In this document: positions 25,032 to 55,718 of the stretch, in pieces | Numbering within the stretch: the first letter of the stretch is position 1 | Layout: the number at the start of each line of letters is the position of its first letter | Origin: a virus | Strand: one strand, 5' to 3' | IMG/VR virus record: IMGVR_UViG_3300005573_001035 | Span: 32,001 to 96,000 of that record | Length of the DNA stretch: 64,000 bases | Program-made: the position numbers and the translations under genes | Notes under the pieces: generated by a model | The model's input: only the letters and a program-made list of their open reading frames with translations | The model's database searches: none | What the model was told of the DNA's origin: nothing

Positions 25032-25568
25032 TCAGAATGAATCTTCTAGTCTGAGTTTAGAAATAACTTGAAGTACGGTCTCTGGGTCTGGAGAGGAGTT
25101 AGGATCATAACTACATGATTCCCAGATCCCAAATTGATCTGGTCTCAAGTACTTCCTCGATTTAAGAACGTTAAAATTATGAGCATAACCATAGATATTG
25201 GGGTCTGACCTTGTGAAAATTACAATCCCCGGTTTCGACTCCCTAAAGTAACTATTGCATAGGTGGGGTAAGAAATTGTCTACCGATATCCACAAATCGC
25301 AACTTTTAATTAACTCAGCAACTTCTCGAAAGGAAAGAGAAAACTCAGTTCGATCTACTCCAGGAAGAATCTTTTCTCCATCTACACCTATTTGTATAAT
25401 CTCAGAGTCAGGGAAAGCTTCTTTGATCATTCTTAAAAGTCTTTCCCAATGAGCATAGTGTTTCGCATTTTCTCTATTTGGATCATCAGTTCGAAGCTTC
25501 CTACTAAAAGGACTAATAACAATACGCATTGCTCCGCTAAATCCCCTCCTCTCTCTTGTTTCTTTCAT
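25032..25568 (-). CDS. GT9 (heptosyltransferase-like) C-terminal Rossmann half
   Basis: IVISP...AKHY..W, IIQIG, SFREVAELIKSCDLWISVDNFLPHL and PGIVIF. Confidence 0.75.
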   Translation of the reverse strand: MKETRERRGFSGAMRIVISPFSRKLRTDDPNRENAKHYAHWERLLRMIKEAFPDSEIIQIGVDGEKILPGVDRTEFSLSFREVAELIKSCDLWISVDNFLPHLCNSYFRESKPGIVIFTRSDPNIYGYAHNFNVLKSRKYLRPDQFGIWESCSYDPNSSPDPETVLQVISKLRLEDSF

Positions 25569-28500
25569 ATAGTTGCTTTTAGATACAATTCTCGATACGC
25601 ATCTATAAGACTACTTTTCCAATTTCTTTCATCTGCAAAACGATAGATATTCATTCGATCCACCTGATCTGGACCCAATAATTCTTTCGCATCTGCAATA
25701 CTAATTAGAACAACATTACCGTCTTCTTCCACTACGTCTTCAAAAACATCAGGATAACAAACTGCCATTACAATCTTTCGATCTGGAAATGCTGACCTTA
25801 CCTCTGGGAAAATAGTTCTAAACATATAATGGTCCCCAATTCCATTGTCAAGAACAATGAATTTTGGAGGAACTGGGACAATATTCCATTGTTTTAGAAA
25901 AGAAGCAAAGATCCCTTCGTCATGGTTCCACATCTCTGCTCTGGTTCCTGAACGAATCCCGCCTTGCTCCTCTCTTAGATGCCAGGTAATGGCCTCAGAA
26001 TCTACAAGTAACTTATATCCCTTCCTATACATAGAATATGTAAAGATTGTTTCCTCTCTATGTGCCACCTGAGATAGATCCAAACAGTAATCTACAATCT
26101 TCGCTCGATAAAGGAAGGAACTATATAGATGCTCTACATAGAATACTGGGAATCTCCCGCTGGTTGGGTCTCTCTCATGTTTGTACCACTGGATATTAGG
26201 AGCCCAGTAAATGTCTTTAATTTCATTGAAAGAAAGGATGTTAGATCTTGGAGAGACATTAGCTTTGGTGGGTAGAACCAGGCCAGCTACTGCTCCAATC
26301 TTCTTTTGGTCTGAATCTTCAATAAAGTGACTTAAAAGGATCTCCAAAGTCTTAGGTTCTGCAATCTCGTCATCATCTATCCTCCAGACTAGATCTTTTG
26401 CCATCTCTTGGCTTTTCTGGTGGTTATGGTGTTGACCTAGTCTGGGAGTAAAGAAAACAGACCACTTGATGCCTTTCTGAGATATCAAAGAAAAGATATT
26501 TTGATATGTACTATTCTCTCTTAGATCTTTCTGCTCTCCATCATCGAAGATAACCAGCTCATCTGGGGGAACCGTTTGATTCGCAATTGAGATTAATGTC
26601 ATGGGTAACGTAGTAAAATAACGGTCCTTCGTTGAGATACAGCACAAAACGTGGGGCTTAGAAGATGCTGGCTGGATTGTCTCAATGTTGTGTTGTGATT
26701 CTTCGATCTGAGATTCTTCATTCTTAATTTCGGAAGATGTGTCATCATTACTAGGTTGCTCTTCTAGAATCGTAGGCATGTTTTCTTGTTCCTCCTTTTT
26801 ACTAGTTTCTGGGAATCGAGTTGAGAAGATTATAGCTTTATCTCTACATTTTGAACATACAGGTTTTCCTTCAAAAAGCTCATATATTTCCTCTAAGCAA
26901 GATGAGCAGTGGTAGATCTTCCTATATGTTTTTCCTTTTTCCCATTTCATAAGCATGATATTAAAGATCCCCTGGGGATATACCCTAGATGGAATCTTCC
27001 ATGGTACATTAGAAATAAGACCATCTTCATTCATGTAATAGTAATCGAAATCAGGAAAATGCTCTTCTCCTAAGCCATGTAACTTGTGGTGGAATCCCCA
27101 GAAACCATACGGCTCTCGATAAGGAACAGAAACAAGCAACTTAGAACAGCTCTTCTTTAAAGAATTTAGAAATTCGACCCCGTTTTCTAAGTGCTCAATG
27201 GTATCAAAACACACAATGGTATCGACACTAACATTCTCCCATATAAACGTCTTTGTAATATCTGCTTGCATAAACATAGCTTCTGGGTAATTTGCTCTAG
27301 CAAATTCAATAATATTACCATCAATATCGACTCCCAGATACGTACATCCTTTCTCTATAAAGTACATACATCCATAACCGGACCCACAACCAAGCTCAAG
27401 TATTGATTCTCCAGGGAGAACTTGGTCGGAACCCCACTTGTATTTTTCATGCTCTCGAGTTGGAGGTCGTATGAATCTAGGAATCACAGGCCTTTCATAC
27501 TGATTGCCATATTTCTGTTGTAGGTAAGTTAAATTGTATCTTTCTTTTAGAATTTGGCTATTCCTCTTAAAAGATTCATCCCACTGGGGTAAACCATGAA
27601 CCGTAGCCTCTCCTTTATGGTAAATTGGAAAGCCTCCAACTAGTACCCCAGGCTCAGAATCAGATCTTTGTAAAGTTCCCGGCTCTGGAACCTGAACAAG
27701 CTTGTAACCATAATATCTAGCCTTAACACAAAAATCAGTATCTTCTCCTGCTCCAGGATAAAAAGTTTCGTCTAAAAGTCCAACTTGGTCAAAAACTTGT
27801 CTCTTAATCATAACACAAAAGAAAACGATAAATTCTTGTTGCGCCGGCTCACTTGTTGTAAGAATTGGTCCAGTAATACCAACTGAGTCATCGTTTAGAA
27901 AAGGCGTTACCAATAGATCCAACCAGTTATTAGGATAACGAGGATATATAACAACATCATTATTCAGTAGGACTACAAACTGGCCTTTGCTAACGTTAAT
28001 TCCTTCGTTTACTGCTCGACCATAGCCCAGAGGTTCGGAAAAACTTAGTAGCTTAACGTAGGGGTGATTAAGACTTCGAACAAAATCTTCGGTTCCATCT
28101 GAACAGCCGTTAGCAACAACTATGATTTCAGTATCTCCATTTTTGAAATTTGTATTTTCAATAACACTCTGAAGGCATGGTTTTAAGCAATCTTCTAAAT
28201 GATTATACGTTGGGATAATAATAGAGTACTTCATTTTATCAAAGTATCGATCTTTGATAATTTGCATATTTCTATTATAGATATCATCCCATTGTGGAAG
28301 ATCAAAAACCGTTTTCTCAGCAGCATGATAAATAGGGAAGCTCGTGGTATATGTCCAAGTATCTCTTTCTTCTGGCACCTCGACTATTTTGTATCCCCCA
28401 AGAATAACTTTCATACAGTAATCTATATCTTCACCAGATCCAGGAGAAAACACTTCATCGAGAAGACCAAATTTCTGGATTATCTCTCTTTTGATCATAA

Positions 28501-28942
28501 CTGTGGAGAAAACCAAAAATTTCTTACTTCCCAAGAACTCCGGTCTTTGTAGCTTGTTAGTTCCTGTAATTGCTACAAGTGGGTCTTCTAAAAATGGTTT
28601 TACAAGTATATTAAGCCAATCATCTGGAGCTTGCCAATCAAGTAGAACAACATCGTTATTTAAAAGAACGATAAACTCACCCTTAGCAACTTTAAGCCCC
28701 TCATTGGTAGCTCTCGTATAACCAAGGGGAGCAGGAAAGGTCAGCAACTTAAAAATATCATTGGAATAGCGCTCTTGAAGAGCAGAAACATATTGCTCCG
28801 TTCCATCTACACAACCATTCGCAACAATAATGATTTCGATTTCTCCTGGTCTTAGCGTAGTTGTTTTAATAAGACTTTCTATACAAGGTCTTAAACAATC
28901 GTTTAGGTGGTTATATGTGGGAATTATAACAGAGTACTTCAT
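25565..28942 (-). CDS. Multidomain glycosyltransferase: GT2-GT2-SAM methyltransferase-Zn ribbon-GT-A-GT9 N-half
   Basis: Two MKYSxIIPTYNH...LLNND...GEDxD repeats; LELGCGSGYG; CSSC/CSKC; RIDDDE; C-terminal DNGIGDH. Confidence 0.88.
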   Translation of the reverse strand: MKYSVIIPTYNHLNDCLRPCIESLIKTTTLRPGEIEIIIVANGCVDGTEQYVSALQERYSNDIFKLLTFPAPLGYTRATNEGLKVAKGEFIVLLNNDVVLLDWQAPDDWLNILVKPFLEDPLVAITGTNKLQRPEFLGSKKFLVFSTVMIKREIIQKFGLLDEVFSPGSGEDIDYCMKVILGGYKIVEVPEERDTWTYTTSFPIYHAAEKTVFDLPQWDDIYNRNMQIIKDRYFDKMKYSIIIPTYNHLEDCLKPCLQSVIENTNFKNGDTEIIVVANGCSDGTEDFVRSLNHPYVKLLSFSEPLGYGRAVNEGINVSKGQFVVLLNNDVVIYPRYPNNWLDLLVTPFLNDDSVGITGPILTTSEPAQQEFIVFFCVMIKRQVFDQVGLLDETFYPGAGEDTDFCVKARYYGYKLVQVPEPGTLQRSDSEPGVLVGGFPIYHKGEATVHGLPQWDESFKRNSQILKERYNLTYLQQKYGNQYERPVIPRFIRPPTREHEKYKWGSDQVLPGESILELGCGSGYGCMYFIEKGCTYLGVDIDGNIIEFARANYPEAMFMQADITKTFIWENVSVDTIVCFDTIEHLENGVEFLNSLKKSCSKLLVSVPYREPYGFWGFHHKLHGLGEEHFPDFDYYYMNEDGLISNVPWKIPSRVYPQGIFNIMLMKWEKGKTYRKIYHCSSCLEEIYELFEGKPVCSKCRDKAIIFSTRFPETSKKEEQENMPTILEEQPSNDDTSSEIKNEESQIEESQHNIETIQPASSKPHVLCCISTKDRYFTTLPMTLISIANQTVPPDELVIFDDGEQKDLRENSTYQNIFSLISQKGIKWSVFFTPRLGQHHNHQKSQEMAKDLVWRIDDDEIAEPKTLEILLSHFIEDSDQKKIGAVAGLVLPTKANVSPRSNILSFNEIKDIYWAPNIQWYKHERDPTSGRFPVFYVEHLYSSFLYRAKIVDYCLDLSQVAHREETIFTYSMYRKGYKLLVDSEAITWHLREEQGGIRSGTRAEMWNHDEGIFASFLKQWNIVPVPPKFIVLDNGIGDHYMFRTIFPEVRSAFPDRKIVMAVCYPDVFEDVVEEDGNVVLISIADAKELLGPDQVDRMNIYRFADERNWKSSLIDAYRELYLKATI

Positions 28943-31518
28943 GGTTTGAAAGTCCTGACTAGTTTCTTTTCTATGAATTTAGCTAAATTCTTAGTTACAA
29001 ATTCTGGATAACTAGAATCAATTTCAACAAATTGAAATGCTATATCTTTTCTACCAAACACATCTTGGCCTTTTTCTAAGCAAGATAAAATATAGTTCGG
29101 ATCTTTGAACTGAGGTGAGTTGTATTCTTGATGTGCATAGCTTTCAATTTTTGAAACTATATGATTGACATCTCCCAAAAAACTAAAGTGCCACCCTCCA
29201 TTCGGAATTATGTTCTCGCTCTCAGTATATCGAATTTGCTCAGGAGTCATATCTTTTGCTTTTGAGTAAGGTAAAATCTTAAACCACCGCCAAGTCCCGA
29301 GTTCTTTACAGTTAAGAAAATAGTAATAGAGACTTTGTTCAAGAGTTGAGAAACCATCTTTTAGTCGGTAGTTTCTTAAGACGGAAGCTCTGGGTATTTC
29401 ATCAACATCTGAGACACAAACCAAATCTCCATCTGAACAATTTTTCCAGCCTCTTGAAATGCAACTTCTCTGATATCTCTCTCTAACCCAAGGATCTGGT
29501 CCCGAGGGCATATCATCAACGACAATATGAATAACTTTATCTAGAAACTTTTCAAATCTTTTCTTATTGGTTTCAAAGTACAGAGGTTTATCTTTGTCAG
29601 AAAAGGTTCTAGTTGCTTCCACAAGAACAAAGTAATCAACCACATCATATAACTCGTTAAAACGAATCTCTAACACATCCAACTCATTATAGAAAATAAA
29701 TCCATCATATAAGAACGGTTTCCTACTCAACCAAATATTGCCATTTACCAAGACATGAAAACCCAGTTCTTCAAGAACCGCATTTCTAACAGAATCAGAA
29801 AGAAAATCATGCCCAGCTAATCCCCCGCCCCCCTTAACTTTTGGATACCAGTAAAGAATCGTTCTTTTAACTTCCTTCGTAGAATGCCCAGTATCAATGA
29901 AAACGAAGTCAAAGAACTTATCTCGAAAAACCTTACTTGCATCTATGGAATCCATTTGCATTAGGGTTACATAGGAGGATAAACCAAACTTAGCAATGTT
30001 ACTTACAAATTCCTTGTAAACAGAATCAAACATTTCTTTCGTCCAGCCCTGAAAGAAAGGCTCTCCTTCGCTTCCAGCAAAAGTATCGATAGCATAAACT
30101 TTTAGATTCTTATTTTTGATTACATCCGCAACTGAGCACAAAGATCTTCCTTTCCAAACTCCCAGCTCAGCAATAATGGCATTTTGGGGTAACATAGAAA
30201 GGGCTATTCGATACGCATTTATATCCTCTCTAGGAAACCATCCATCTGGAAACTCATCGTTACATTTATCAGAGATGATTTCTCCATCAGATGGTTCAAT
30301 TTGAGAAAAATCTTTAGCTTTTTTGCACTCAATTCTAAAGTTTCGACCCCAGTGGTGGACATATACTGGGTCTTTTCTTTGAAATGAATCAAATCCAGCC
30401 CCATAAAGATGGTCAATTAGTATCTCATCATACCATCCAAACTTATGAGGAGTCTGGGGTAGAGTTGTCCCATATATGCAATTCAATAGAATGTATCTTT
30501 CTTGTTTCGAAACATAGGGAAATGCTTGACAAATTTGTAATATATCAGGCATTTCAATAAAGAGCTTTCCCCCTGGTTTCAAAACTCGGTTCCACTCCTT
30601 AAACATTGCCATGACTTCTCTTGGATCAAAATGCTCAACTAAATGAGAAGCATGAATCTCATCAATGCTTGACGAATCAAAAGGTAAAGATCTTGCATCT
30701 GCCTTAACATCCGCAAACTCACTATCAATATCAACGTTTATACAGTTGGGCATAATCCAGTTACCACAACCTAGATTTAACCTTTTTCTGGTGGTAAGAT
30801 TTCGGTGTTTTTGAAGAAGTAAGGATTCATTCCTAGTCATAATCTTAGAGACATCTTCCGGAATCCATCTTGAGAAAGTTCTGTTTCCTTTATGGTAAAT
30901 TGGAAATTCTCCAAACATATGAGTTGGAGTGTATTTGGGGGATTGTTTCTCAGGAACCTGCACAATTTTGTAACCTAAATCGTATACTCGAATACAAAAA
31001 TCTACATCTTCACAAAAACCAGGAGAAAAATCCTCATCAAGCCCACCCAAAGCCAGAAATAAAGACTTGTATGTCATAACACAGAAGAACATAGCATAAT
31101 CTACACCTAGAACTTTGTGCTTAGCAACCATGGGACCAGAAATTCCAGTTCGATAATCTTTCTTAAAAGGTTCTTCTAGAATTCGAATCCAGGTACTAGA
31201 AGATCCAGAATCTAGAATTACAACATCATCATTAAGTATAATAATCTTATCTCCATTTGCCTTAGAAACTCCTGTGTTTACGGCTTTGGGAAAACCCACT
31301 GGTTCTCGAATCCAGTACAAACGAAACTCTTTTCCATAACTCCTTACATGGTCGTGAGTTGTGTCTGTGCACCCATTGGCAACAACTATAATCTCAGTAT
31401 CTTCAGATGAGAAATCGGTATTTTTCTCAATTGATTTTAAACATTCTTTTAAGTTTTCCACATTATTATACGTAGGAATGATTATAGAATACTTAATTTT
31501 AGGATTCGGTTGGTTCAT
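28939..31518 (-). CDS. Multidomain protein: GT2-methyltransferase-Methyltransf_24-GT17
   Basis: SIIIPTYN/LNDD; LNLGCG..HLVEH; ELGVWKGRS..FIDTGH..GHDF; FIFYNELDVLEIR..SDVDEIP..GGWHFSFLG. Confidence 0.88.
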   Translation of the reverse strand: MNQPNPKIKYSIIIPTYNNVENLKECLKSIEKNTDFSSEDTEIIVVANGCTDTTHDHVRSYGKEFRLYWIREPVGFPKAVNTGVSKANGDKIIILNDDVVILDSGSSSTWIRILEEPFKKDYRTGISGPMVAKHKVLGVDYAMFFCVMTYKSLFLALGGLDEDFSPGFCEDVDFCIRVYDLGYKIVQVPEKQSPKYTPTHMFGEFPIYHKGNRTFSRWIPEDVSKIMTRNESLLLQKHRNLTTRKRLNLGCGNWIMPNCINVDIDSEFADVKADARSLPFDSSSIDEIHASHLVEHFDPREVMAMFKEWNRVLKPGGKLFIEMPDILQICQAFPYVSKQERYILLNCIYGTTLPQTPHKFGWYDEILIDHLYGAGFDSFQRKDPVYVHHWGRNFRIECKKAKDFSQIEPSDGEIISDKCNDEFPDGWFPREDINAYRIALSMLPQNAIIAELGVWKGRSLCSVADVIKNKNLKVYAIDTFAGSEGEPFFQGWTKEMFDSVYKEFVSNIAKFGLSSYVTLMQMDSIDASKVFRDKFFDFVFIDTGHSTKEVKRTILYWYPKVKGGGGLAGHDFLSDSVRNAVLEELGFHVLVNGNIWLSRKPFLYDGFIFYNELDVLEIRFNELYDVVDYFVLVEATRTFSDKDKPLYFETNKKRFEKFLDKVIHIVVDDMPSGPDPWVRERYQRSCISRGWKNCSDGDLVCVSDVDEIPRASVLRNYRLKDGFSTLEQSLYYYFLNCKELGTWRWFKILPYSKAKDMTPEQIRYTESENIIPNGGWHFSFLGDVNHIVSKIESYAHQEYNSPQFKDPNYILSCLEKGQDVFGRKDIAFQFVEIDSSYPEFVTKNLAKFIEKKLVRTFKP

Positions 31519-31540
31519 TTTTGTAAGGCACCCCCTCTTC

Positions 31541-32185
31541 TCAAAGACTTAGCTTTCTACAAACATGAGTATCTTCAAAAATCAAGACCAATTGGAGAGC
31601 TAAGTCTGGATCTGGTTGTGAATCTAAATCAATGGGCTCTGATGTCCAAACATCAAACTGAAATTTTCTTGCTTTCCCCAAGTACAAGTTTAAATTCTGA
31701 GGGTGACCAAATAAGGACGGTTTGGATTTTGTAAAGATTACCACTCCTGGTTTTCCTACTTCGTTGGCAAGATGTTGAAAAAAGTTATCGACACTAATCC
31801 AATAATGGCACTTAGCAATGTAGGACTTAAGTTCAGAAAGCGAAAGGTCATAATATATATTATCAATCAAGTCCGGACATAGAATTGGTTCTCCACTTAG
31901 AGAAAACTGGATAAATTTTCTTTTTCTTCCCCCACTTTCTTTTAGTTTCTCCAAGAATGGAATCCAATATAAATAGTTTTTTGCACATGTAAGGACATAT
32001 GGGGGACTACTATTTAGTAAGAAATCATTTCGTTGGGTTATTAGTTTATAATCTGGTTTGATTATGCTTCGACTATAAGGACTAATTAGAACTGTGATGT
32101 AATCTCCATCCTTTTCCAGCATTGGCAAAGTCTCCATTATTGATTCGTTCAGTTCTATCTTCTTCCTTCTTGCATAAAGATTCAT
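31541..32185 (-). CDS. GT9-like C-terminal half (second copy)
   Basis: VLISP..AKNY..W and WISVDNFFQHLA..KPGVVIF; paralog of 25032-25568. The true start may be an internal Met. Confidence 0.72.
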   Translation of the reverse strand: MNLYARRKKIELNESIMETLPMLEKDGDYITVLISPYSRSIIKPDYKLITQRNDFLLNSSPPYVLTCAKNYLYWIPFLEKLKESGGRKRKFIQFSLSGEPILCPDLIDNIYYDLSLSELKSYIAKCHYWISVDNFFQHLANEVGKPGVVIFTKSKPSLFGHPQNLNLYLGKARKFQFDVWTSEPIDLDSQPDPDLALQLVLIFEDTHVCRKLSL

Positions 32186-33911
32186 TGCTGGTGGTGGCAG
32201 TGGAAGGTATCATACTAGTATTCGAAAAATTAGAAGGTACTTGTTGTGGTTGAGAGCAGTACATAGCCCTAAAAGAATCAGAAAAAGGTCTATCATGAGG
32301 CCAGTTTACAGACCAACAAAACGCATATGGATTATCTCCACTAGGATACATTCTAGATAGTTCCTTTGAAGAAACGAAAAATATATCTCGACCCAAGTAC
32401 TGACCACAAGTTAGATCATTTTCATTAGTGAGCAGATCAGAGAAAACTTCTGGGAATGTTGGAGAGATAATTATTGTTCTGTCTGGATTGGCCGCAAGGA
32501 TATCTCCCAACGCACTCTTGAAAAGAATGTTGTCTCCTACCCCTCCAGTAGCCAGGCAGATTCTAGGAGGAAGAATCTTCACGCCAAATCTCTCATCAAT
32601 GATGGAAAGAAGAGTTACCATTTGCTCTTGTAACTGGTCATTAGAAATACCTCGCATTCCTCCCATCGGATACGCGAAGTTAGTTACCCTCGCCCGAGTA
32701 TCCACATGTAAAGATAATCCAGATAGAAACAAAGAATTCGTAAATAGAACATGAAACCACGTTAAGAAATCTGGAGAAAATCTTGAATCGTAACAAGAAA
32801 ACTCTTTTACATAACCTATGTCAGGTTTCCTACATACGTATGAACTCACCAAGTACTCATTCCCAGTTAAAAGATAAGGATTAGGAATAAAGCGCTCACC
32901 AAATTGCACACTAGGAAAGATAGAAAAAGTCTTAAGAATGTTTCTAGAAATAAACTCATAGATCAATCCATCACGAGGAAGAAGAATACTTGGAGAAACT
33001 GCACCCAAAGAAGAGTCTTCTTGAAAGTGCTCTAATAAGAAAGCCAAAGCATCCGGGGCCACGATATGATCATCAGATAAGAACCAACATAAATCTTCCA
33101 CCAAATCCAAAGCTTGGATAATAGAATCAAATTTACTTCCGCCTTTCTTTAATGGATGACCCACTAGAATTTCACATCCTTTTGAAGAAGCAAGGGAGAA
33201 GATGCCACTAAAATCAGCAATAGAAGGCAAATCTAAAGGTGACTCACTAGAGTCGATTATCACAATTCTATTAGGTACCCTCAGTTGGTTCACAAGGGAA
33301 ATCAGAACCATGCTTAAGCAGGAGTATCGATCTTTTGTAGGAATAATACATGTGACATGCTCTCGGTTCTCTTCTAGTTGAGGCATTAGAGATTCCTCTT
33401 TCTTCAAGCGTAGGTACTCAATGCAAATAACTTGTTGTAAATCATTCGTTTCTTCCCATGGAAAATCTCGAATATTGCCTTTCGAGTTAATAAATGTTTT
33501 CTTCGCTCTGATTCCAGGTAAGGGTATAGCAATAGGTTCTTTGATATCTGAACTAAATGGAGCTACAAAAAAGAACTTGTAGAATCCAAATTCAGTTTCT
33601 AATCTCAGGTAGCTTTTTGCTATGGTGGCAACCTCGTCAATGCTACTACATAGAAACAAAGCAATCTTCTTCTTGCCCGCACCATTACCTTTAGTAGGAA
33701 TTAGTAATCTGGAAACCTTTACAATTCTCGAACTCAAGAAATCTCCCACGCTTAGCTGAGAAAACTTCTTAGCTACCCCCAACAGAAACTCACTACAAAA
33801 ATCTGGGACGATAATTTCTAGTAAGAATTCTGGATTCTTGGCCAATGATTTTGTTAGAAGAATTCTAGAATAAACTGCTTGGATCTGAGAGTTCGTTATA
33901 CTTTCTGGCAT
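32082..33911 (-). CDS. GT-A-like protein with a C-terminal GT9 N-half
   Basis: HVTCIIPTKDRY..LSDD parallels the third GT domain of 25565-28942; ends with ATGGVGDNILF. Confidence 0.75.
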   Translation of the reverse strand: MPESITNSQIQAVYSRILLTKSLAKNPEFLLEIIVPDFCSEFLLGVAKKFSQLSVGDFLSSRIVKVSRLLIPTKGNGAGKKKIALFLCSSIDEVATIAKSYLRLETEFGFYKFFFVAPFSSDIKEPIAIPLPGIRAKKTFINSKGNIRDFPWEETNDLQQVICIEYLRLKKEESLMPQLEENREHVTCIIPTKDRYSCLSMVLISLVNQLRVPNRIVIIDSSESPLDLPSIADFSGIFSLASSKGCEILVGHPLKKGGSKFDSIIQALDLVEDLCWFLSDDHIVAPDALAFLLEHFQEDSSLGAVSPSILLPRDGLIYEFISRNILKTFSIFPSVQFGERFIPNPYLLTGNEYLVSSYVCRKPDIGYVKEFSCYDSRFSPDFLTWFHVLFTNSLFLSGLSLHVDTRARVTNFAYPMGGMRGISNDQLQEQMVTLLSIIDERFGVKILPPRICLATGGVGDNILFKSALGDILAANPDRTIIISPTFPEVFSDLLTNENDLTCGQYLGRDIFFVSSKELSRMYPSGDNPYAFCWSVNWPHDRPFSDSFRAMYCSQPQQVPSNFSNTSMIPSTATTSNESLCKKEEDRTERINNGDFANAGKGWRLHHSSN

Positions 33912-37615: not shown

Positions 37616-37641
37616 GTTCTTTTCTCGCCTGAACCAAGTTT

Positions 37642-39030: not shown

Positions 39031-39060
39031 AAATCTCCTATACTCCTCCTCTCCCTCTTC

Positions 39061-40443: not shown

Positions 40444-40471
40444 CGTTTCCTAGAAAGCCCCCCCTAGAATG

Positions 40472-46852: not shown

Positions 46853-46887
46853 TCTTTCCTCTCAAACTTAGTCTTAAAGAAAAAGAA

Positions 46888-47544: not shown

Positions 47545-47568
47545 CTTTCTCTTCTTTGTACATGTTTT

Positions 47569-48438: not shown

Positions 48439-49243
48439 CTTTCTTTCCTACCTCCTAGATCCAAGTATATCTCGTGGTGGTTTCTATACATCTTTCCAAG
48501 AAATCGGCTTAGAGATTCCTATGCATTTTTCAGAAGATCTCCCCCTTGCCATTGAACAAATTGTCTAAAGCTAGAAACGAGAATCAATTTCTCTGTAATA
48601 AGAAGAATCTCGTCTGTCTAATCGACATATATAAACTAGTCCAGCCTCCAACAAAGCTGGATTCATTATACGATGTTTAAGAATAAGACAAAAAAATCAT
48701 CAAAATCTTTCATAAAACCACAGTTTTCTTAGTTGTATATCTAAGAAAGCTAACTTTGAGTAAGAACTAATAGGAGTAACCAGGTAGGGAGTTTTCTCAA
48801 CAGATAGTTCTTGGATGCTTCTTACCTTAAAGAATGATAGTTTCTTAAGAGTGTCGCTTTCAATCCAAGAAATAGGCTGGTCTTCAGAGTTTACTCGTAT
48901 TTTGTTCAAGAATCTAAGGACCAAGTAATCTAATAGGTCTGATCTTTTGGTCTCAAACTTTTCCCTACAAAGTAACGAATCGAAGATTCATTCACAATAT
49001 AACAATCTATAGAAAGTAAAGAATCTGAGTAATAAACTCACAATGTACCACGTCTTTGTATTCTCACCGATTAGAATTTGTTGCCAAAGATCATTAATTT
49101 CAAACCAATCAGAATATAACTCGTTTTGAATGGTGGATGGTAGAAAACTATCTCTTATATACTCAGTAATGTAGTACTACCAACCTGGAAAGGTTCAAAC
49201 ATTATTCTTGGCTCTTTCTTTTTTATGATACTAGCAAAACTAG

Positions 49244-50077
49244 TTAAGCAGCTCCAGTTTCTGGATCTATGGACGTAAACAGAATGTAAGGAATAACACA
49301 TCCTCCCTGGTCAGTTACTATTTGCGTATTTAGAATTGAAGATGGAAGGTTGTACGTAATCAGACCACCCCGACCTCCAACAAACGGAGCTGGAAACCGA
49401 GTGCCAAGAATTCCATCGGCTATTAAACCGCTGAGACTATAAGTCGAGGCAGTTGCTCCAGATCCCACAACATATCCTTTTACTCTCTGACCTACTATAT
49501 AGATTTCGTATCCACTTGTGGTCCAGGAAGTTCCGAAAACACCAATTAGATATGTACTTCCGCCTACCAAGTTCACATTAAAGCTAGTCTGAAAAAGAAG
49601 CGCGTATCCGGAAATAGACCCCTCACCTGAGAATCCGAACCAACCGTCCGTATAACTAGCGGTTGAAAACGTATTTCCAGTCTTGGTATATATACCAATC
49701 TCAATAGTGTACTCATTACTCCAAGTTGCTGGTGAGGTTTCTAGATTATTTGTAAGCAAGATAGGTAATCTAACCGAGACAGCACTTACATTCCCAGGGA
49801 CATATACTAAAGAAAAGATCGGCACTGCATCATAACATCGGTGCGCTTCCGTTAGTTCTGGGATGGCGTTATTTCCGAGAGTGCAGAACCATCGCATTGA
49901 TGAGAAAACAGTACTTCCGCCTACCAAGTCAACGTAAGATCCACCATTTATAGATTTCTTTAGTTTCAAAGTCGAGCTATCAAGGATAATATCACCCTCA
50001 TTAGAACTAGATACAGAAGGAGATGTACAAGAACGAAGATTTTCCAGTACCTCTGTAAGAGTGCCTCGGAATTCCAT
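49244..50077 (-). CDS. Putative virion protein, paralog of 50082-50876
   Basis: Shared MEFxGT, SSSNE, YVPGN, GTRFPAP.VGGR and PYILFTSIDPETGA. Confidence 0.7.
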   Translation of the reverse strand: MEFRGTLTEVLENLRSCTSPSVSSSNEGDIILDSSTLKLKKSINGGSYVDLVGGSTVFSSMRWFCTLGNNAIPELTEAHRCYDAVPIFSLVYVPGNVSAVSVRLPILLTNNLETSPATWSNEYTIEIGIYTKTGNTFSTASYTDGWFGFSGEGSISGYALLFQTSFNVNLVGGSTYLIGVFGTSWTTSGYEIYIVGQRVKGYVVGSGATASTYSLSGLIADGILGTRFPAPFVGGRGGLITYNLPSSILNTQIVTDQGGCVIPYILFTSIDPETGAA

Positions 50078-50081
50078 TTCT

Positions 50082-50876
50082 TTATAGGGTCGCTCCAGTT
50101 TCTGGATCTATCGATGTAAAGAGAATGTATGGAACAACAAATCCTCCCAGGTCAGATTTTATCTGGGTCGCAGATATGGGTGAAGGCAAAGCGGCGGTTG
50201 TCGTAGAAAACCGACCCCCAACAAGCGGAGCCGGGAACCGAGTACCAGCACCTCCCTCTGTTACTAAGCCTGCTATACTTACAGATGGTCCCGACATCTG
50301 TTTTCCAACTATAAACGCGTTGCCAGAAGTATTTGCCCTAGCAACTAGAACCCCAACTAAGTAATAGCTCCCAGACGCCAGCACCACAGAATTATTTTGT
50401 ATCGCACTAGATGATATATTAACAAAGTAGGCCTTACTATTCAGTAAAGTTGAGGACCCACTAAACGATACTGTTGCCGTCTGAACGAGAGCCCAGGTTG
50501 AGAAACCTCCAGTATATAAACCAAAAGTTGCCGTATATGAGTTTGCTCCACTGGCGGTAAAATAAAAAGCCAATCTAATTAATTTTGCTGTCAGATTTCC
50601 TGGTACATACATAGAACTTAGCACCAGGTACTTATCGGTAGCTTGTGTAATATTAGTTAAACTCACCACAGCTGAGATTCCATCTGTCGCGGTAAACCAT
50701 AACAAACTTAATGGTCTGCACCCTATTTCCGAATACGATCCACCACTAATAGAGGCTTTTAGCTTCATATCATTGGCATCTAAGATAATATTAGCTTCGT
50801 TAGAACTTGATACAGGTGGTGATGATACCGCCTTAAGAGTTAGTTTTATCTTTTTGGTTGTACCCTTAAATTCCAA
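50082..50876 (-). CDS. Putative virion protein, paralog of 49244-50077
   Basis: Same shared motifs; TTG start after AAGGAGG. Confidence 0.7.
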   Translation of the reverse strand: MEFKGTTKKIKLTLKAVSSPPVSSSNEANIILDANDMKLKASISGGSYSEIGCRPLSLLWFTATDGISAVVSLTNITQATDKYLVLSSMYVPGNLTAKLIRLAFYFTASGANSYTATFGLYTGGFSTWALVQTATVSFSGSSTLLNSKAYFVNISSSAIQNNSVVLASGSYYLVGVLVARANTSGNAFIVGKQMSGPSVSIAGLVTEGGAGTRFPAPLVGGRFSTTTAALPSPISATQIKSDLGGFVVPYILFTSIDPETGATL

Positions 50877-50906
50877 CTTACCAGAAAACCTCCTTCGACA
50901 GTTATT

Positions 50907-53900
50907 TTAGACAGCAGCTATAACCACCCTGCCATTAAATCTTGAATCTGGACTAGAACTAACATATATTCTTACATTATTAGAATCAATAATTGTAATC
51001 TGATCTGGAAATACAAGATTTCCAGTAGACGTATCCCACGTGCTAACTAACAGGGCTGAAGAATTAAGATTGTGAGTAAACGTTATGTAATAGTTACCGG
51101 TTCCAGAAGTCCACGATGTCGTATTATTGAACGTAGTTGTGTACCTAGAAAGAGATCCGCTAAAACCCGAGTAACCACTAAAACCACTTACTCCAGAGTA
51201 ACCACTAAAACCAGATTTACCACTAAAACCACTTACTCCAGAGTAACCACTAAAACCACTTACGCCTGAATAGCCCGAGTAGCCACTAAAACCAGATTTA
51301 CCACTAAAACCACTTACTCCATCTAGTCCTTGAGAACCAGAATAACCCGAGTAGCCACTAAAACCAGATTTACCACTAAAACCACTTACTCCATCTAGTC
51401 CTTGAGAACCAGAATAACCCGAGAAACCGCTTACGCCAGAATAGCCACTAAAACCACTTACTCCATCTAGTCCTTGAGAACCAGAATAACCCGAGAAACC
51501 GCTTACGCCAGAATAGCCACTAAAACCACTTACTCCATCTAGTCCTTGAGAACCAGAATACCCACTAAAACCACTTGTTCCCGAATACCCACTAAAACCA
51601 CTTGTTCCTTCGAGACCTTGAGAACCAGAATATCCTGAGAAACCACTTACGCCCGAATACCCACTAAAACCACTTGTTCCTTGAGGACCAGAATACCCCG
51701 AAAAGCCGCTCGTACCAGAATATCCACTATATCCACTCGTACCTGTGGGGCCTTGAGGACCAGAATACCCAGAGAAACCACTTACACCAGAGTAACCCGA
51801 AAAGCCACTTGTTCCAGAATACCCACTAAATCCACTAGTTCCCTCAGGTCCTTGAGACCCAGAATACCCACTAAAACCAGAAACACCTTGTGGTCCAGAA
51901 TACCCTGAAAAGCCACTTACACCAGAATACCCACTAAAACCACTTATTCCTTCCGGACCCTGAAGACCAGAGTATCCAGAGAAACCACTAGTACCACTTA
52001 TTCCAGAATACCCACTAAAACCACTTGTTCCCGAATACCCACTAAAACCACTTGTTCCCGCAGGACCTTGCAACCCAGAATATCCAGAGAAACCACTTTC
52101 GCCCGAATAGCCACTAAACCCAGATGTTCCTTCTGGTCCTTGAGAACCAGAATACCCCGAGAAACCACTTATACCTGAGTAGCCAGAGAAACCAGATTTA
52201 CCACTAACACCACTCGCCCCAGAATACCCCGAGAAACCACTTACACCCGAGTAACCACTAAAACCAGATGTTCCTTCTGGTCCTTGTGAGCCAGAATATC
52301 CCGAGAAACCACTTACACCCGAGTAACCACTAAAACCAGAAGTACCTTGTAGTCCAGAATACCCACTAAATCCACTCGTTCCTATGGGACCTTGTGGGCC
52401 TGAATATCCAGAGAAACCACTTACACCTGAGTAGCCCGAGAAACCACTTGTTCCTGTAGGACCTTGAGGACCCGAGTACCCACTAAAACCACTTTCACCC
52501 GAGTAACCACTAAAACCACTCACACCTGTAGGACCTTGAGGTCCAGAATATCCACTAAATCCACTTACACCAGAGTAACCAGAGAAACCACTTGTTCCTT
52601 CGGGTCCTTGAGGACCAGAATAGCCCGAGAAACCACTAAAACCACTCGTACCTGTTGGGCCTTGAGGTCCAGAATATCCACTAAATCCACTTACACCAGA
52701 GTAACCAGACAAACCACTTGGTCCCGAGTAACCACTAAAACCAGAAATTCCTTCTGGTCCTTGTGGGCCGGAATATCCACTAAAACCAGACCTCCCACTT
52801 ACACCCGAGTAACCCGAAAAGCCACTGGTTCCAGAATACCCACTAAATCCACTCGTTCCTGTAGGGCCTTGAGGACCAGAATACCCAGAGAAACCACTCG
52901 TACCAGAATAGCCACTAAATCCAGACGTTCCTTCTGGGCCTTGAGAACCAGAATACCCAGAGAAACCACTCGTACCAGAATAGCCACTAAATCCAGAAGT
53001 ACCCTGGGGTCCAGAATACCCAGAGAAACCACTTACACCAGAGTAACCCGAAAAGCCACTCGTCCCCTGGGGCCCTGGTTCTCCACTATATCCACTATAT
53101 CCACTCGTTCCAGTGGGACCCTGAGAACCAGAATATCCCGAGAAACCACTAACGCCCGAATAGCCACTAAAACCAGAAGTTCCAGTGGGACCCTGAGAAC
53201 CAGAATATCCCGAGAAACCACTAACGCCCGAATAGCCACTAAAACCAGAAGTTCCAGTGGGACCCTGAGAACCAGAGTAGCCACTAAATCCACTTAGACC
53301 CGAATAGCCACTAAATCCAGAAGTTCCCTGGGGTCCTGGTTCTCCACTATATCCACTATATCCACTCGTTCCAGCGGGGCCTTGAGACCCGGAATACCCA
53401 GAGAAACCACTCGTACCCGAATAGCCACTAAAACCAGAAGTTCCCTGGGGTCCTGGTTCTCCACTATATCCACTAAAACCAGATGTTCCCTCTGGACCCT
53501 GAGAACCAGAGTAGCCACTAAATCCACTTAGACCCGAATAGCCACTAAAACCAGATGTTCCAGTAGAGCCCTGGGGTCCGGAATAACCCGAGAATCCACT
53601 CGTTCCAGAATACCCACTAAAACCAGATGTTCCCTCTGGACCCTGAGAACCAGAATATCCCGAAAAGCCACTCGCGCCCGAATAGCCAGAGAAACCACTT
53701 GGTCCAGAATAGCCACTAAAACCACTTGTTCCCTGAGGTCCTGGTTCTCCACTATATCCACTATATCCACTCGTTCCTTGAGGGCCCTGACAACCAGAAT
53801 ACCCCGAAAAGCCACTCGTGCCCGAATAGCCAGAGAAACCACTTGTACCTGAGTAACCAGAAAAGCCACTTGGGCCAGAATACCCAGAGAAACCACTTAG

Positions 53901-55718
53901 ACCCGAATAACCACTAAAACCAGATGTTCCCTGAGGACCAGTCTCCCCACTGTATCCACTAAAACCAGACGTTCCCGAAACGCCTTGTGGACCAGAATAG
54001 CCAGAGAAACCACTTGTACCTGAGTAACCAGAAAAGCCACTTGGCCCCGAATAACCACTAAATCCGGATGTTCCCTGGGGTCCAGCTTCTCCACTATACC
54101 CACTAAATCCCGAGTAACCACTTAGACCAGACCTTCCACTATAACCACTAAAACCCGAATAGCCACTCGAACCAGGAGCATCCCCACTATAGCCCGAAAA
54201 GCCACTAAATCCCGAGTAACCACTTAGACCTGAGTAGCCACTAAAACCACTAAAACCCGAATAGCCACTGGTTCCCGAAGGCCCAGAAAAACCACTAAAT
54301 CCCGAGTACCCACTTAGACCAGGCCCCCCACTATAACCACTAAAACCCGAGTAGCCACTGGAACCTGAGTAACCAGACAATCCGCTAAATCCTGAGTACC
54401 CACTATAACCACTAGGCCCTGGGGGTCCAGAGGAACCACTATAACCGCTCCTGCCCGACTGGCCACTAGCTCCAGAATAACCGCTAAATCCACTCTTGCC
54501 AGAGAAACCACTCAACCCACTTACACCTGCAGGACCTGGCTGCCCAGACCAACCACTAAAACCTGAGAAACCAGACAAACCAGGTACTCCGGGTAAGCCA
54601 CTCCAACCAGAGTATCCACTCCATCCAGAAAAACCACTTTGTCCACTAAAACCACTAAAACCTGATTGGCCTGGTTCTCCACCACCGCCACTACCGCCAC
54701 TACCTCCTTCTCCCCCACCACCACCGCCGCCACCAGTACCAGCCGAAGAACCAGGGCCACTATACGAAGGAGGAAGATACGAAGGTGGAGGTTGCTTATC
54801 TCCTGCGAAACCTGGAGGAGCAGGCATAGCCTGAGGAACTGAACTAGGGGTTGAAGGCGTGGATGGAGTATGAGTTCTCTCAGAAAAGGATTCCCAGGGA
54901 CAATTTCTATCTCCTATTGGATTAGCTCTTTCTGCATATTTGGCTAGTCCTGTTTGATCACATCTCTTACGACCATCAGTGTTTATGTCTTTGTCAGCTC
55001 GAAGATTAAACTCATCTTTGGTCCATATTCGAATCTCACCATCAGCAATAATATGAATCTTCTTTCCAACTTTCAGAAATAAGTTTCCTTCTGTTTCAAG
55101 GTGAACATCGTCTTTAAATTTCGCATGGAATTGTCTCTTAGTAATATCAACCCGGAAGAAATCTCCAAGATACGTTCTAAATAGAAATTGTTCCTGTTCT
55201 TCTCTCTCATCTAAAACAAGGACGGTTTGATTATCATCAACTTTACAGATAGATGCTATGTCACCAGCAGGCGGGTTAGTCAGGAGGCGCTTTTTCCCTG
55301 TAATTTCCCAGCGCTCATCTTGAGGGTCGTCAGATATGACAATCGTTCTGCCTTCTGGAGATTTGAAGAGAACCCACTTATCTTCATACTTTCCGACTTG
55401 GCACTCAGGTAAGACTTTCGAAGATTCAATTTCCAGGGATGCAAAATAGTAGGGTCTGTTTGCATTTCCCTGCTCAAAAAAGACCCAAACCCAAGACCCT
55501 TTTCTAGGAACTAAGCAAGCACCATAGTACCAATTCTCAGGGTTCGCTTCTAAGTTTCTTCCACCCAGATACGTATTAGCTGGACGGGCCCAGATTGCCT
55601 TTTCTTTATCTAGCTCAGGCATCAAAGCTGGAATCCAGACCTTGACCCTGCCAAATTGCTCTGGGTCTCTATTATCTATGACTTCTGCTCTGAAGAAGCC
55701 ATTCAGAAGTTGCTCCAT
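50907..55718 (-). CDS. gp5/VgrG-like baseplate spike fused to a long G-(F/Y)-S collagen-like shaft and a small tip domain
   Basis: OB-fold signature RAEVIDNRDPEQFGRVKVWIP..WARP..VPRKGSWVWVFFEQGNANRPYY, then a beta-helix-like segment, a Pro/Gly linker, about 1,170 aa of triplets and a C-terminal ITFTHNLNS domain. Confidence 0.85.
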   Translation of the reverse strand: MEQLLNGFFRAEVIDNRDPEQFGRVKVWIPALMPELDKEKAIWARPANTYLGGRNLEANPENWYYGACLVPRKGSWVWVFFEQGNANRPYYFASLEIESSKVLPECQVGKYEDKWVLFKSPEGRTIVISDDPQDERWEITGKKRLLTNPPAGDIASICKVDDNQTVLVLDEREEQEQFLFRTYLGDFFRVDITKRQFHAKFKDDVHLETEGNLFLKVGKKIHIIADGEIRIWTKDEFNLRADKDINTDGRKRCDQTGLAKYAERANPIGDRNCPWESFSERTHTPSTPSTPSSVPQAMPAPPGFAGDKQPPPSYLPPSYSGPGSSAGTGGGGGGGGEGGSGGSGGGGEPGQSGFSGFSGQSGFSGWSGYSGWSGLPGVPGLSGFSGFSGWSGQPGPAGVSGLSGFSGKSGFSGYSGASGQSGRSGYSGSSGPPGPSGYSGYSGFSGLSGYSGSSGYSGFSGYSGGPGLSGYSGFSGFSGPSGTSGYSGFSGFSGYSGLSGYSGFSGFSGYSGDAPGSSGYSGFSGYSGRSGLSGYSGFSGYSGEAGPQGTSGFSGYSGPSGFSGYSGTSGFSGYSGPQGVSGTSGFSGYSGETGPQGTSGFSGYSGLSGFSGYSGPSGFSGYSGTSGFSGYSGTSGFSGYSGCQGPQGTSGYSGYSGEPGPQGTSGFSGYSGPSGFSGYSGASGFSGYSGSQGPEGTSGFSGYSGTSGFSGYSGPQGSTGTSGFSGYSGLSGFSGYSGSQGPEGTSGFSGYSGEPGPQGTSGFSGYSGTSGFSGYSGSQGPAGTSGYSGYSGEPGPQGTSGFSGYSGLSGFSGYSGSQGPTGTSGFSGYSGVSGFSGYSGSQGPTGTSGFSGYSGVSGFSGYSGSQGPTGTSGYSGYSGEPGPQGTSGFSGYSGVSGFSGYSGPQGTSGFSGYSGTSGFSGYSGSQGPEGTSGFSGYSGTSGFSGYSGPQGPTGTSGFSGYSGTSGFSGYSGVSGRSGFSGYSGPQGPEGISGFSGYSGPSGLSGYSGVSGFSGYSGPQGPTGTSGFSGFSGYSGPQGPEGTSGFSGYSGVSGFSGYSGPQGPTGVSGFSGYSGESGFSGYSGPQGPTGTSGFSGYSGVSGFSGYSGPQGPIGTSGFSGYSGLQGTSGFSGYSGVSGFSGYSGSQGPEGTSGFSGYSGVSGFSGYSGASGVSGKSGFSGYSGISGFSGYSGSQGPEGTSGFSGYSGESGFSGYSGLQGPAGTSGFSGYSGTSGFSGYSGISGTSGFSGYSGLQGPEGISGFSGYSGVSGFSGYSGPQGVSGFSGYSGSQGPEGTSGFSGYSGTSGFSGYSGVSGFSGYSGPQGPTGTSGYSGYSGTSGFSGYSGPQGTSGFSGYSGVSGFSGYSGSQGLEGTSGFSGYSGTSGFSGYSGSQGLDGVSGFSGYSGVSGFSGYSGSQGLDGVSGFSGYSGVSGFSGYSGSQGLDGVSGFSGKSGFSGYSGYSGSQGLDGVSGFSGKSGFSGYSGYSGVSGFSGYSGVSGFSGKSGFSGYSGVSGFSGYSGFSGSLSRYTTTFNNTTSWTSGTGNYYITFTHNLNSSALLVSTWDTSTGNLVFPDQITIIDSNNVRIYVSSSPDSRFNGRVVIAAV
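51150..54670 (-). repeat. Coding low-complexity 9-nt-period repeat (SG[FY]/GPQ)
   Basis: Triplet repeat with local exact 63-nt tandem duplications, for example near 51250-51560 and 53110-53275. Confidence 0.9.

Follow-up and report, generated by a model that had tools for sequence, protein, structure and literature searches.

A conserved glycosyltransferase and methyltransferase cassette beside serine-rich collagen-like fibres of a large uncultured phage

Several described systems place sugars on repetitive or collagen-like proteins, and in this work we compare them with a locus of fibre and glycosyltransferase (GT) genes in a 64-kb stretch of viral DNA (positions 32,001 to 96,000 of IMG/VR record IMGVR_UViG_3300005573_001035), which we call the window and number from its first nucleotide. 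Three genes of the window encode collagen-like fibres whose Gly-X-Y triplets have mostly Tyr or Phe at X and mostly Ser at Y, and GT and methyltransferase genes lie beside them. Homologous, syntenic cassettes of such enzymes adjoin Gly-[Y/I/F]-Ser fibres in unrelated phage backgrounds. Passages of one report (PMC7157674) describe SgtA of Clostridioides difficile, a soluble Mn-dependent GT-A enzyme which is encoded beside bclA3 and puts O-GlcNAc on the Thr residues of the BclA3 repeat. We group with it, as the closest precedent, BclA of Bacillus anthracis, which forms glycosylated collagen-like hairs on the exosporium. Compared by description, the window resembles BclA3/SgtA in having a collagen-like protein, a hydroxy amino acid at Y and an adjoining gene for a soluble GT. 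The acceptor in BclA3, however, is Thr in Gly-Pro-Thr on a bacterial spore, whereas in the window it would be a putative Ser that follows an aromatic or aliphatic X, in a phage. SgtA is also a GT-A enzyme, whereas the core of the window enzymes is a GT2 domain with a probable split GT9-like GT-B, in a set of up to eight GT domains.

Two names are needed for this core. GT9f is a small stand-alone protein resembling the C-terminal, donor-binding half of a GT9-like GT-B enzyme, and GT2c is the GT2 domain directly preceding it, which ends in a subdomain of about 100 amino acids (aa) with the motif G-x-G-D-H/N. The second precedent is TibC, a heptosyltransferase of the GT9 fold which, in the passages of PMC4358343 that concern it, hyperglycosylates the repetitive adhesin TibA in the cytoplasm with heptose. 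Like TibC/TibA and Aah/AIDA-I (the BAHT enzymes), the window has an enzyme of GT9 lineage, and in the structural search with GT9f TibC ranks among the best three matches. Unlike TibC, GT9f consists of the C-terminal half only, has no match to the family model TIGR04414 and scores equally against WaaF and WaaC. Enzymes of the TibC kind have an N-terminal beta-barrel, an iron finger and a dodecameric ring, and the acceptor residue of TibC is Ser.

Among viruses, parts of one report (PMC9614988) describe A064R (together with A061L) of chlorovirus PBCV-1, a soluble GT-GT-methyltransferase that assembles the capsid-protein glycan and caps it with methyl groups, and the giant-virus enzyme L230, a lysyl hydroxylase/glucosyltransferase which acts on a viral collagen-like protein. 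By description, the window shares with A064R a virus-encoded multidomain architecture of GT and methyltransferase domains; PBCV-1, however, is a eukaryotic virus, its capsid glycan is N-linked and its GT families are other than those of the window. With L230 the window shares the pairing of a virus enzyme with a virus collagen-like protein, but the chemistry of L230 proceeds via hydroxylysine, whereas the window has no hydroxylase and Lys accounts for less than 0.5% of the residues in the two long repeat domains and for 0.8% in the short one. Self-glycosylation by virus enzymes and collagen-like fibres that bear glycans are thus both already known. In full-text searches that covered few subscription journals, we found no paper linking phage collagen-like fibres with enzymes of these kinds.

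By analogy, BclA3/SgtA and TibC/TibA appear to be closer precedents than the animal proteoglycans with which a first-pass annotation of this DNA had compared the Ser-Gly repeats. That comparison fails: Pfam scans of the window open reading frames (ORFs) gave no GT14-type xylosyltransferase, and acidic residues are few, Asp and Glu together amounting to about 1-2% in the two long repeat domains and to about 4% in the short one. We therefore rejected the identity of the fibres as proteoglycan cores.

The genes of the fibres and of the cassette are the following.

50907-55718, minus strand: spike-collagen fusion, 1603 aa (PF01391 E 2.5e-162; PF04717)
40853-44350, minus strand: collagen-like fibre, 1165 aa (PF01391 E 2e-139)
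33965-35992, minus strand: short collagen-stalk fibre, 675 aa (PF01391 E 6.9e-13)
32082-33911, minus strand: divergent GT2c copy with a C-terminal G-x-G-D-N subdomain, 609 aa (BLAST; GVGDN at residue 457)
31541-32185, minus strand: GT9f copy 2, 214 aa (PF01075 E 9.7e-5, 22.2 bits, cut-off 22)
28939-31518, minus strand: 859-aa enzyme with GT2, Methyltransf_11, Methyltransf_24 and GT17 domains (Pfam)
25565-28942, minus strand: 1125-aa enzyme with GT2, GT2, class-I methyltransferase, GT2c and G-I-G-D-H subdomain (Pfam)
25032-25568, minus strand: GT9f copy 1, 178 aa (PF01075 E 0.0033, 17.2 bits, cut-off 22)

The last five are the enzyme genes downstream of the shortest fibre, listed in the order of transcription (609, 214, 859, 1125 and 178 aa).

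Co-occurrence of the cassette with one fibre class

When IMG/VR was scanned with the 1165-aa fibre, 15 loci proved to hold Gly-[Y/I/F]-Ser fibres. In six of these the GT2-GT2-methyltransferase, GT2c and GT9f adjoin the fibres in the same order, and the enzymes are 41-49% identical to those of the window. The six (L011, the near-identical L013-L016, and L017) represent three lineages, with L011 and L013-L016 being T4-like (neck protein, gp15 and T4-type terminase). Five further fibre records were searched whole: GT9f lies elsewhere in two, and the other three are 9-68% complete. Four short contigs among the 15 loci had no GT9f in the sequence examined. In the 416-kb viral record G008, from which locus L018 comes, a GT9f homologue (404533-405024) is read through three in-frame TAA codons and may be a pseudogene or reflect an altered genetic code.

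In the reverse direction, the GT9f profile found 373 relatives in IMG/VR, three matches in 185,579 prokaryote genomes (one per species), all of them on contigs of metagenome-assembled genomes (MAGs), and one match in the 50,697 phage records of INPHARED, so that GT9f is nearly virus-only. We took 83 loci, namely 80 of the 373 IMG/VR relatives and the three MAG contigs, and GT2c precedes GT9f in all 83. A collagen-like ORF is present in the fetched flank of 19 loci; it is Ser-rich at Y in every one of the 19, at least 60% hydrophobic at X in 16, and immediately downstream of GT9f in 12 loci. We also searched the full length of five long cassette records that have no fibre in the flank, and each of them carried such ORFs elsewhere (14 ORFs, with a Ser fraction at Y of 0.59-0.98). 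The window itself holds two GT2c/GT9f pairs and three Gly-[Y/F]-Ser fibres. Searches of IMG/VR with the large GT (L001-L005) and with the spike N-terminus (L006, L007) gave relatives without collagen genes, but these share a single domain and are uninformative. A tblastn comparison of the 1165-aa fibre with catalogued phages gave no match either, a result that carries no weight on how frequent such fibres are in cultured phages, since queries of this kind are masked by the low-complexity filter. Four viral contigs, L001 (666-7856), L024, L032 and L047, encode glycosyltransferase polyproteins of 2198-2735 aa, with GT17-like parts in L024, L032 and L047 and Methyltransf_24-like parts in L024 and L047.

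The sole carrier of GT9f in INPHARED is Methylophilaceae phage P19250A (KX815270), a 38.7-kb siphophage of a betaproteobacterial host, whose annotation includes a host specificity protein J. Its gene P19250A_0023 (6791-10396) encodes a Gly-[Y/I/F]-Ser protein of 1201 aa, 843 of them in Gly-X-Y; this is a collagen-like fibre and not the 'tail length tape-measure protein' of the annotation. Directly downstream of this gene lie a small methyltransferase-like gene, then GT2c and then GT9f.

Is the cassette a companion of collagen-like genes in general, or of one class of them? Two samples were drawn from among the matches listed, and every count given for them holds among those matches: sample 1 comprises 41 records obtained with a degenerate DNA pattern for four Gly-[Y/F]-[Ser or Thr] triplets, and sample 2 comprises 44 records obtained with a composition-blind pattern of twelve GGN-spaced triplets. 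Neither sample is random, the contigs are fragments, and the records are not phylogenetically independent. GT9f is present in 21 of the 41 records of sample 1, and it separates the two fibre types, with 21/32 Ser-type records against 0/9 Thr-type records. From the coordinates read, it lies at most 8 kb from the repeat in 20 of the 21 positives, and both complete records that lack it are of the Thr type. This sister class of fibre, Gly-[Y/F]-Thr, is represented by L129, L138, L141, L143, L165, L166, L169, L177 and L178, two of these genomes being complete. Runs of Gly-[Y/F]-[Ser/Thr] were also seen among the matches listed on contigs that IMG/VR labels as giant-virus MAGs (GVMAG; L116, L118, L128, L132, L139, L157, L160, L171 and L188), with up to 14 pattern matches per locus.

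The stretches of sample 2 are mostly of Pro, Gln and Thr types; only 8 of 136 combine Ser at Y with a hydrophobic X, and about 12 are Gly-[S/T]-Ser. GT9f was found in two of the five records with Ser at Y and hydrophobic X, in none of the 11 with Gly-[S/T]-Ser or Gly-Pro-Ser at a strong score (there was one weak partial match) and in none of the 28 of other types (Pro/Thr/Gln). When the samples are pooled, with two records common to both removed, GT9f occurs in 22/35 Gly-hydrophobic-Ser records versus 0/48 other collagens among the matches listed (Fisher p 2e-11, a value to be used only as a guide since it overstates certainty, the records being neither random nor independent).

The model TIGR04414, which stands for the true TibC family, behaved differently. 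It matched in 3 of the 11 Gly-[S/T]-Ser or Gly-Pro-Ser records, two of the matches being above the family cut-off and the third being cut by the contig end, and in none of the 32 other records, which include 18 Gly-hydrophobic-Ser and nine Gly-[Y/F]-Thr records. The type of enzyme thus follows the class of fibre, as a relation between enzyme and substrate predicts, and such a pattern is hard to derive from a role in modifying host glycans. The co-occurrence of such fibres with GT2, GT9 and methyltransferase loci across phage genomes had been set beforehand as the test of the first-pass annotation, and the association proved strong and specific.

Fibres and enzymes of the window

Counting only runs of at least five triplets, the Gly-X-Y repeat covers 126 residues in the 675-aa fibre, 1047 in the 1165-aa fibre and 1194 in the spike fusion. 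The sum is 2367, in agreement with the more than 2,300 residues reported before for these three genes. Ser occupies Y in 36/42, 291/349 and 312/398 triplets, respectively, X is mostly Tyr or Phe in all three, and Ser-Gly dipeptides number 55, 293 and 316; these counts from the translations bear out the composition first described. The matches to PF01391 score 48.6, 453.9 and 527.2 bits in the same order (cut-off 27.2). At the DNA level the repeats have diverged, with 60-93% matches at periods of 27, 45, 72 and 144 (72 and 144 being higher-order), and both TCN and AGY codons are used for Ser; the repeat is therefore kept by selection at the protein level and is not an assembly artefact. Pro makes up only 5% of the repeat domains and charged residues about 2.6%, and KGE/KGD triplets number 0-1. 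The stabilisers of collagen have been surveyed across all domains of life in a paper whose relevant passages (PMC11923368) name features that the window repeat domains lack. The window fibres would presumably form triple helices all the same, with the known stabilisers scarce in their sequence.

The spike fusion begins with a gp5/VgrG-type OB domain (residues 10-94, window 55437-55691), followed by a beta-helix-like stretch, a Pro-rich linker with a Gly run, the 1194-aa Gly-[Y/F]-Ser repeat (about 51150-54671) and an 80-aa C-terminal domain. The OB domain matches PF04717 with 35.6 bits on the N-terminal 340 aa (E 1.2e-8) and 30.7 bits on the whole protein (cut-off 23.8), as well as phrog_430, 'baseplate hub subunit and tail lysozyme' (E 6.9e-10), and the C-terminal 97 aa match phrog_16122, 'virion structural protein' (E 7.7e-8). 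The 1603-aa protein is a central spike of the baseplate, extended by a collagen-like fibre. Since one fibre is fused to a baseplate spike domain, we regard the fibres as parts of the virion. In spikes of the gp5/VgrG type, the chain that follows the OB domain and the beta-helix points away from the tube. This topology makes an outward central fibre more likely than a collagen 'tape measure', a role that we considered for the fusion and rejected. The spike N-terminus (window 54699-55718) has four detectable homologues (P0004-P0007; 1425-1893 aa), all sharing the spike domain. Two of them, P0004 and P0007, carry a low-complexity linker of about 1000 aa and a similar C-terminal domain in place of the collagen, which marks the long extension after the spike as a replaceable module.

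In the 1165-aa fibre, periodic GPQGP islands and G-x-x-P-G breaks punctuate the repeat, which is flanked by a short N-terminal peptide and a C-terminal domain of 60 aa. A PPGFAG(E/D) motif is common to the N-terminus of this fibre (44240-44350, minus strand) and to the linker of the spike fusion (about 54740-54830, minus strand), and this shared motif suggests that one fibre may have been derived from the other by duplication. In the 675-aa fibre, the 126-aa repeat precedes a 530-aa Gly-rich domain with a repeating IG..AG-like pattern, which by eye recalls the heads of beta-roll adhesins. The protein matches tail-fibre PHROGs (e.g. phrog_5073, E 2e-14), and its C-terminal 531 aa gave no family match in Pfam or PHROG. 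A triple helix rises by about 0.29 nm per residue, at which the repeats would be roughly 340 nm (spike fusion), 300 nm (1165-aa fibre) and 36 nm (675-aa fibre) long.

Turning to the enzymes, the 1125-aa protein contains GT2 in three stretches (E 6e-49; 166.6 bits against a PF00535 cut-off of 23.3) and Methyltransf_11 (E 7e-12), with GT2c at residues ~762-1020 and the G-I-G-D-H subdomain at residues ~1021-1125, the motif itself being at residue 1034. The 859-aa protein has Pfam matches to GT2 (E 4e-18, 66.3 bits), Methyltransf_11 (E 6e-11), Methyltransf_24 (E 2.4e-19) and GT17 (PF04724, E 2.3e-35, 122.7 bits against a cut-off of 26, residues 602-833). The 609-aa protein is 28% identical to residues 738-1120 of the 1125-aa enzyme (BLAST E 2e-35; Pfam GT2 E 0.01), and the two GT9f copies are 39% identical to each other. 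The earlier estimate of about ten GT domains holds for the families, GT2, GT17 and split GT9; the number comes to about eight firm domains (GT2, GT17 and two split GT9-like) plus one weak candidate at 47569-48438. The several methyltransferase domains noted at the outset are borne out by three firm ones. Over 19 residues, the hydropathy of the GT proteins peaks at 0.76-1.68, and a single value, in the 609-aa protein, is borderline. They show no clear membrane segment, and Pfam scans of the window gave no flippase, polymerase or priming transferase, for which reasons the GT proteins look cytoplasmic.

The first-pass reading of GT9f as part of a split GT9 is supported by its profile, its predicted fold, its conserved columns and a model of the complex. 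The profile aligns to residues 184-294, the donor-binding half, of the lipopolysaccharide heptosyltransferase WaaC (E 0.002). The AlphaFold (AF2) model of copy 1 (pLDDT 91.7) has as its top Foldseek matches WaaF, TibC and WaaC, about equal (E 2e-5 to 3e-5) and in their C-terminal halves only. Residues K36, D97 and H102 of GT9f are invariant in 37 sequences and line up with a Lys, an Asp and a His that belong to the donor site of WaaC. As a TibC-family member proper, GT9f was rejected: TIGR04414 gave no match at E<=0.01 in both GT9f copies, the two GT2c-bearing proteins or the fused ORF of L103. In GT2c the DD, RxDDD and GxGD columns are invariant in 33 homologues, and the start of GT9f copy 1 overlaps the stop of the upstream 1125-aa gene (ATGA). 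In the predicted complex, the GxGD loop of GT2c faces the donor site of GT9f. The median ipSAE is 0.76 versus 0.36 for the best of three controls, at least 97% of the contacts are common to the runs, and the partner pLDDT is at least 86; the ipSAE mark had been calibrated, being reached by 116/157 solved complexes and 2/215 mismatched pairs. This score expresses likeness to a whole GT-B fold and is not proven binding, because GT9 enzymes have solved structures. The model makes it likely, if not settled, that the C-terminal subdomain of GT2c is the N-half, or acceptor side, of a split GT-B paired with GT9f. A split GT-B of another kind is Alg13/Alg14, in which the donor-binding C-half and the acceptor-side N-half are separate polypeptides that assemble; in the window, by comparison, the putative N-half is very short (~100 aa) and extends a GT-A domain at its C-terminus. 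The MAG contig L103 has GT2c and GT9f in one ORF, and the split is kept in 82/83 loci.

Proposed role of the cassette and its alternatives

We consider it reasonably probable that the cassette enzymes O-glycosylate the serines of the fibres and cap the glycan with methyl groups. In the cytoplasm of the infected cell, the enzymes would draw on the nucleotide sugars of the host and O-glycosylate Ser at the Y position of nascent or assembling fibres. The core of the cassette would be the split GT-B formed by the C-terminal subdomain of GT2c and by GT9f, around which further GT2, GT17 and S-adenosylmethionine (SAM)-dependent methyltransferase domains are fused; of these, the GT domains would extend the glycan and the methyltransferase domains would cap it. 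The sugar would then stabilise and solubilise an aromatic-rich triple helix that has neither Pro or hydroxyproline nor salt bridges of Lys with Glu or Asp. In passages of one study (PMC11923368), galactosylation of Thr turns (Gly-Pro-Thr)10 from a coil into a triple helix. The outcome would be long glycosylated fibres, one of them anchored via the central-spike domain of gp5 type. The first-pass claim that the phage decorates its own fibres with its own enzymes is thereby supported as far as co-occurrence and fibre-class specificity go, while its parts on glycan chemistry and function (stability, adhesion or shielding) stay conjectural.

A number of observations weigh against this proposal. 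Sixty-four of the 83 GT9f loci have no collagen gene in the fetched flank, many of them being short contigs. Among the matches listed, 11 of the 32 Gly-[Y/F]-Ser records lack GT9f, all of these being less than 80% complete according to CheckV. One of these 11, G025, nonetheless has terminal repeats and is probably a complete genome; it carries nine GFS triplets and has neither GT9f nor a PF01075 match. The caution attached to the Fisher value belongs here as well. In L072, L078 and L086 the cassette stands beside Ser-rich collagens with a mostly non-hydrophobic X, so the boundary of the fibre class is not sharp. The C-terminal subdomain of GT2c (120 aa) has a best Foldseek E of 0.11 and no sequence match in the PDB, so that it stays a putative N-half of the split GT-B. 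The radical-SAM-like protein, the phosphatase, the weak methyltransferase and GT candidates and both paralogue families described below have no relative in the 83 cassette loci. Finally, beyond co-occurrence we infer every step: Ser as the acceptor, the identity of the sugar, methyl capping, triple-helix formation and function.

Could the enzymes instead act on the host? On this explanation they remodel glycans of the host envelope (O-antigen, capsule, teichoic acid or S-layer) for a block of superinfection or for release, and they lie next to the fibres since both belong to a hypervariable host-recognition cluster. A genome analysis, in the passages that treat pelagimyophage host-recognition clusters (PMC7029224), gives modification of the host O-chain as the default for such GTs, and this also speaks against glycosylation of the fibres. 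So do the nearest NCBIfam models of the GT2 domains, which are exopolysaccharide and O-antigen enzymes, and the GT2 matches in PHROG carry the label 'GtrB-like O-antigen conversion'; the NCBIfam scores, however, are all far below the cut-offs. The cassette tracks the sequence class of the fibre (22/35 vs 0/48 and 21/32 vs 0/9 among the matches listed) and no host group, its carriers including a 38.7-kb betaproteobacterial siphophage, T4-like phages and the jumbo phage of the window. GT9f is also essentially absent from cellular genomes, and no membrane GT, flippase or polymerase was found in the window. We therefore regard modification of host glycans as unlikely.

It may also be asked whether the cassette glycosylates other virion proteins, such as the capsid or tail tube, or another fibre residue, such as Tyr, in which case its association with Ser collagens would reflect a shared need, for example for a glycan that serves as fibre ligand or assembly cue. 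Glycosylation of mycobacteriophage virions by phage GTs was reportedly found by Freeman et al. in 2023, and Tyr is abundant at X in the window fibres. Among the carriers, however, X varies between Tyr, Phe, Ile, Trp and Val whereas Ser at Y is constant, and Tyr was rejected as the acceptor on this ground. Gly-[Y/F]-Thr fibres, moreover, lack the cassette (0/9 among the matches listed), fibre and cassette genes are immediate neighbours in 12 loci, and in P19250A the three enzyme genes come straight after the fibre. Another target thus seems distinctly improbable. A third idea, that the enzymes are unrelated to the fibres and instead produce a polysaccharide, free or lipid-linked, or modify the DNA of the phage, is very hard to credit: multidomain GT2 and methyltransferase enzymes are typical of polysaccharide pathways, as the NCBIfam neighbours illustrate, and a QueD-like gene of the window suggests modification of DNA bases, but this explanation leaves the specific, contiguous co-occurrence with one collagen class unaccounted for, and Pfam, NCBIfam and hydropathy revealed no priming transferase, transporter or DNA-binding GT family.

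Beyond glycosylation of the fibre serines as such, we put forward a wider picture tentatively, as a possibility in which we have less than even confidence. Two parallel, virus-specific systems of GT9 ancestry may each be matched to a serine collagen of their own, a TibC-like enzyme to Gly-Ser/Thr-Ser and a split GT-B on a GT-A to Gly-aromatic-Ser. Hyperglycosylation of Ser might then let proline-free, uncharged, aromatic-rich chains fold into soluble triple helices, and the fibre of about 340 nm at the tip of the spike might be an undescribed type of appendage.

If glycosylation of the fibres is borne out, it would be a widespread and undescribed post-translational system of aquatic and other environmental phages, its marker gene being present on at least 373 IMG/VR contigs. 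It would extend virus self-glycosylation from giant viruses and a few mycobacteriophages to the tail fibres of many phage lineages, and it would offer a new chemical route to collagen stability without proline, hydroxyproline or salt bridges. The reading of GTs in phage host-recognition clusters, which one genome analysis took as modifiers of the host O-antigen, would change as well. The idea is directly testable in the cultured phage-host pair of P19250A, and a soluble enzyme in two parts that glycosylates Ser within a simple repeat could serve the glyco-engineering of collagen-like materials.

Neighbouring genes and setting of the window

The other genes between and beside the fibres are these.

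50082-50876 and 49244-50077, minus strand: two paralogues, 264 aa and 277 aa, directly downstream of the spike-collagen gene
47569-48438, minus strand: weak candidate glycosyltransferase, 289 aa (phrog_1574 E 3.4e-9; phrog_34859 'glycosyltransferase' E 2.4e-4)
46888-47544, minus strand: weak candidate SAM methyltransferase, 218 aa (Methyltransf_11 and Methyltransf_23, E ~0.009, below cut-off)
45093-46238, minus strand: radical-SAM-like protein, 381 aa (variant C-x4-C-x2-C motif)
44461-44988, minus strand: Cys-based (PTP/DSP-like) phosphatase, 175 aa (HCAGGKDRT, i.e. the HCxxGxxR signature)
36068-40807, minus strand: three paralogues of 515, 462 and 460 aa, together with a 111-aa gene, flanked by two of the fibre genes

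What is conserved with such fibres appears, from the sequences compared, to be the GT2/GT9f/methyltransferase cassette only; with no relatives of these neighbours in the 83 loci, their link to the fibres is adjacency in this window alone, and they would not be part of the conserved system. The 264-aa and 277-aa paralogues are 42% identical (E 6e-48) and have no match in Pfam or PHROG, and the 289-aa candidate has none in Pfam or NCBIfam. The first-pass annotation had also listed a radical SAM enzyme and a phosphatase, and each survives in part. For the 381-aa protein the Pfam match is below threshold (PF04055 E 0.034, 14.7 bits, cut-off 29.5) and the motif is a variant, C-x3-C-x2-C being absent, but language-model features in the atlas (0.97) and a predicted structure with TM 0.75-0.81 to radical SAM/B12-binding clusters favour the assignment. 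The phosphatase has its signature, while its Pfam matches (PTP-SAK, Y_phosphatase3 and DSPc) are all sub-threshold. The 515-, 462- and 460-aa paralogues have internal repeats and pairwise BLAST E values of 1e-16 to 2e-23. None of the genes at 36068-40807 matched Pfam or PHROG, and the atlas scores of the 462-aa paralogue are all below 0.8, with weak beta-propeller-like leads. The gene array, which is otherwise tightly packed on the minus strand, has a 0.8-kb gap at 48439-49243, in which we found no ORF of at least 75 aa, no tRNA and no Rfam match.

Every gene of the 64-kb window is on the minus strand. The features of interest outside the fibre and enzyme region are as follows.

24122-24973, minus strand: gene for a caspase-like Peptidase_C14 protein (E 2.9e-28), immediately downstream of the cassette
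14478-21857, minus strand: multisubunit RNA polymerase beta and beta' genes
7697-8338, minus strand: QueD-like 6-pyruvoyl-tetrahydropterin synthase (E 8e-29)
Elsewhere outside the fibre and enzyme region, minus strand: topoisomerase II, UvsX-like recombinase, SbcCD and Cas4-like nuclease

This gene content is that of a large uncultured phage, and the fibre and enzyme region is best explained as a jumbo-phage module for the fibres of tail and baseplate. When the RNA polymerase genes were compared with catalogued phages by blastn, nothing matched, so no catalogued phage is similar at the DNA level. The QueD-like gene hints that the phage may modify its DNA with a base of the 7-deazaguanine type.

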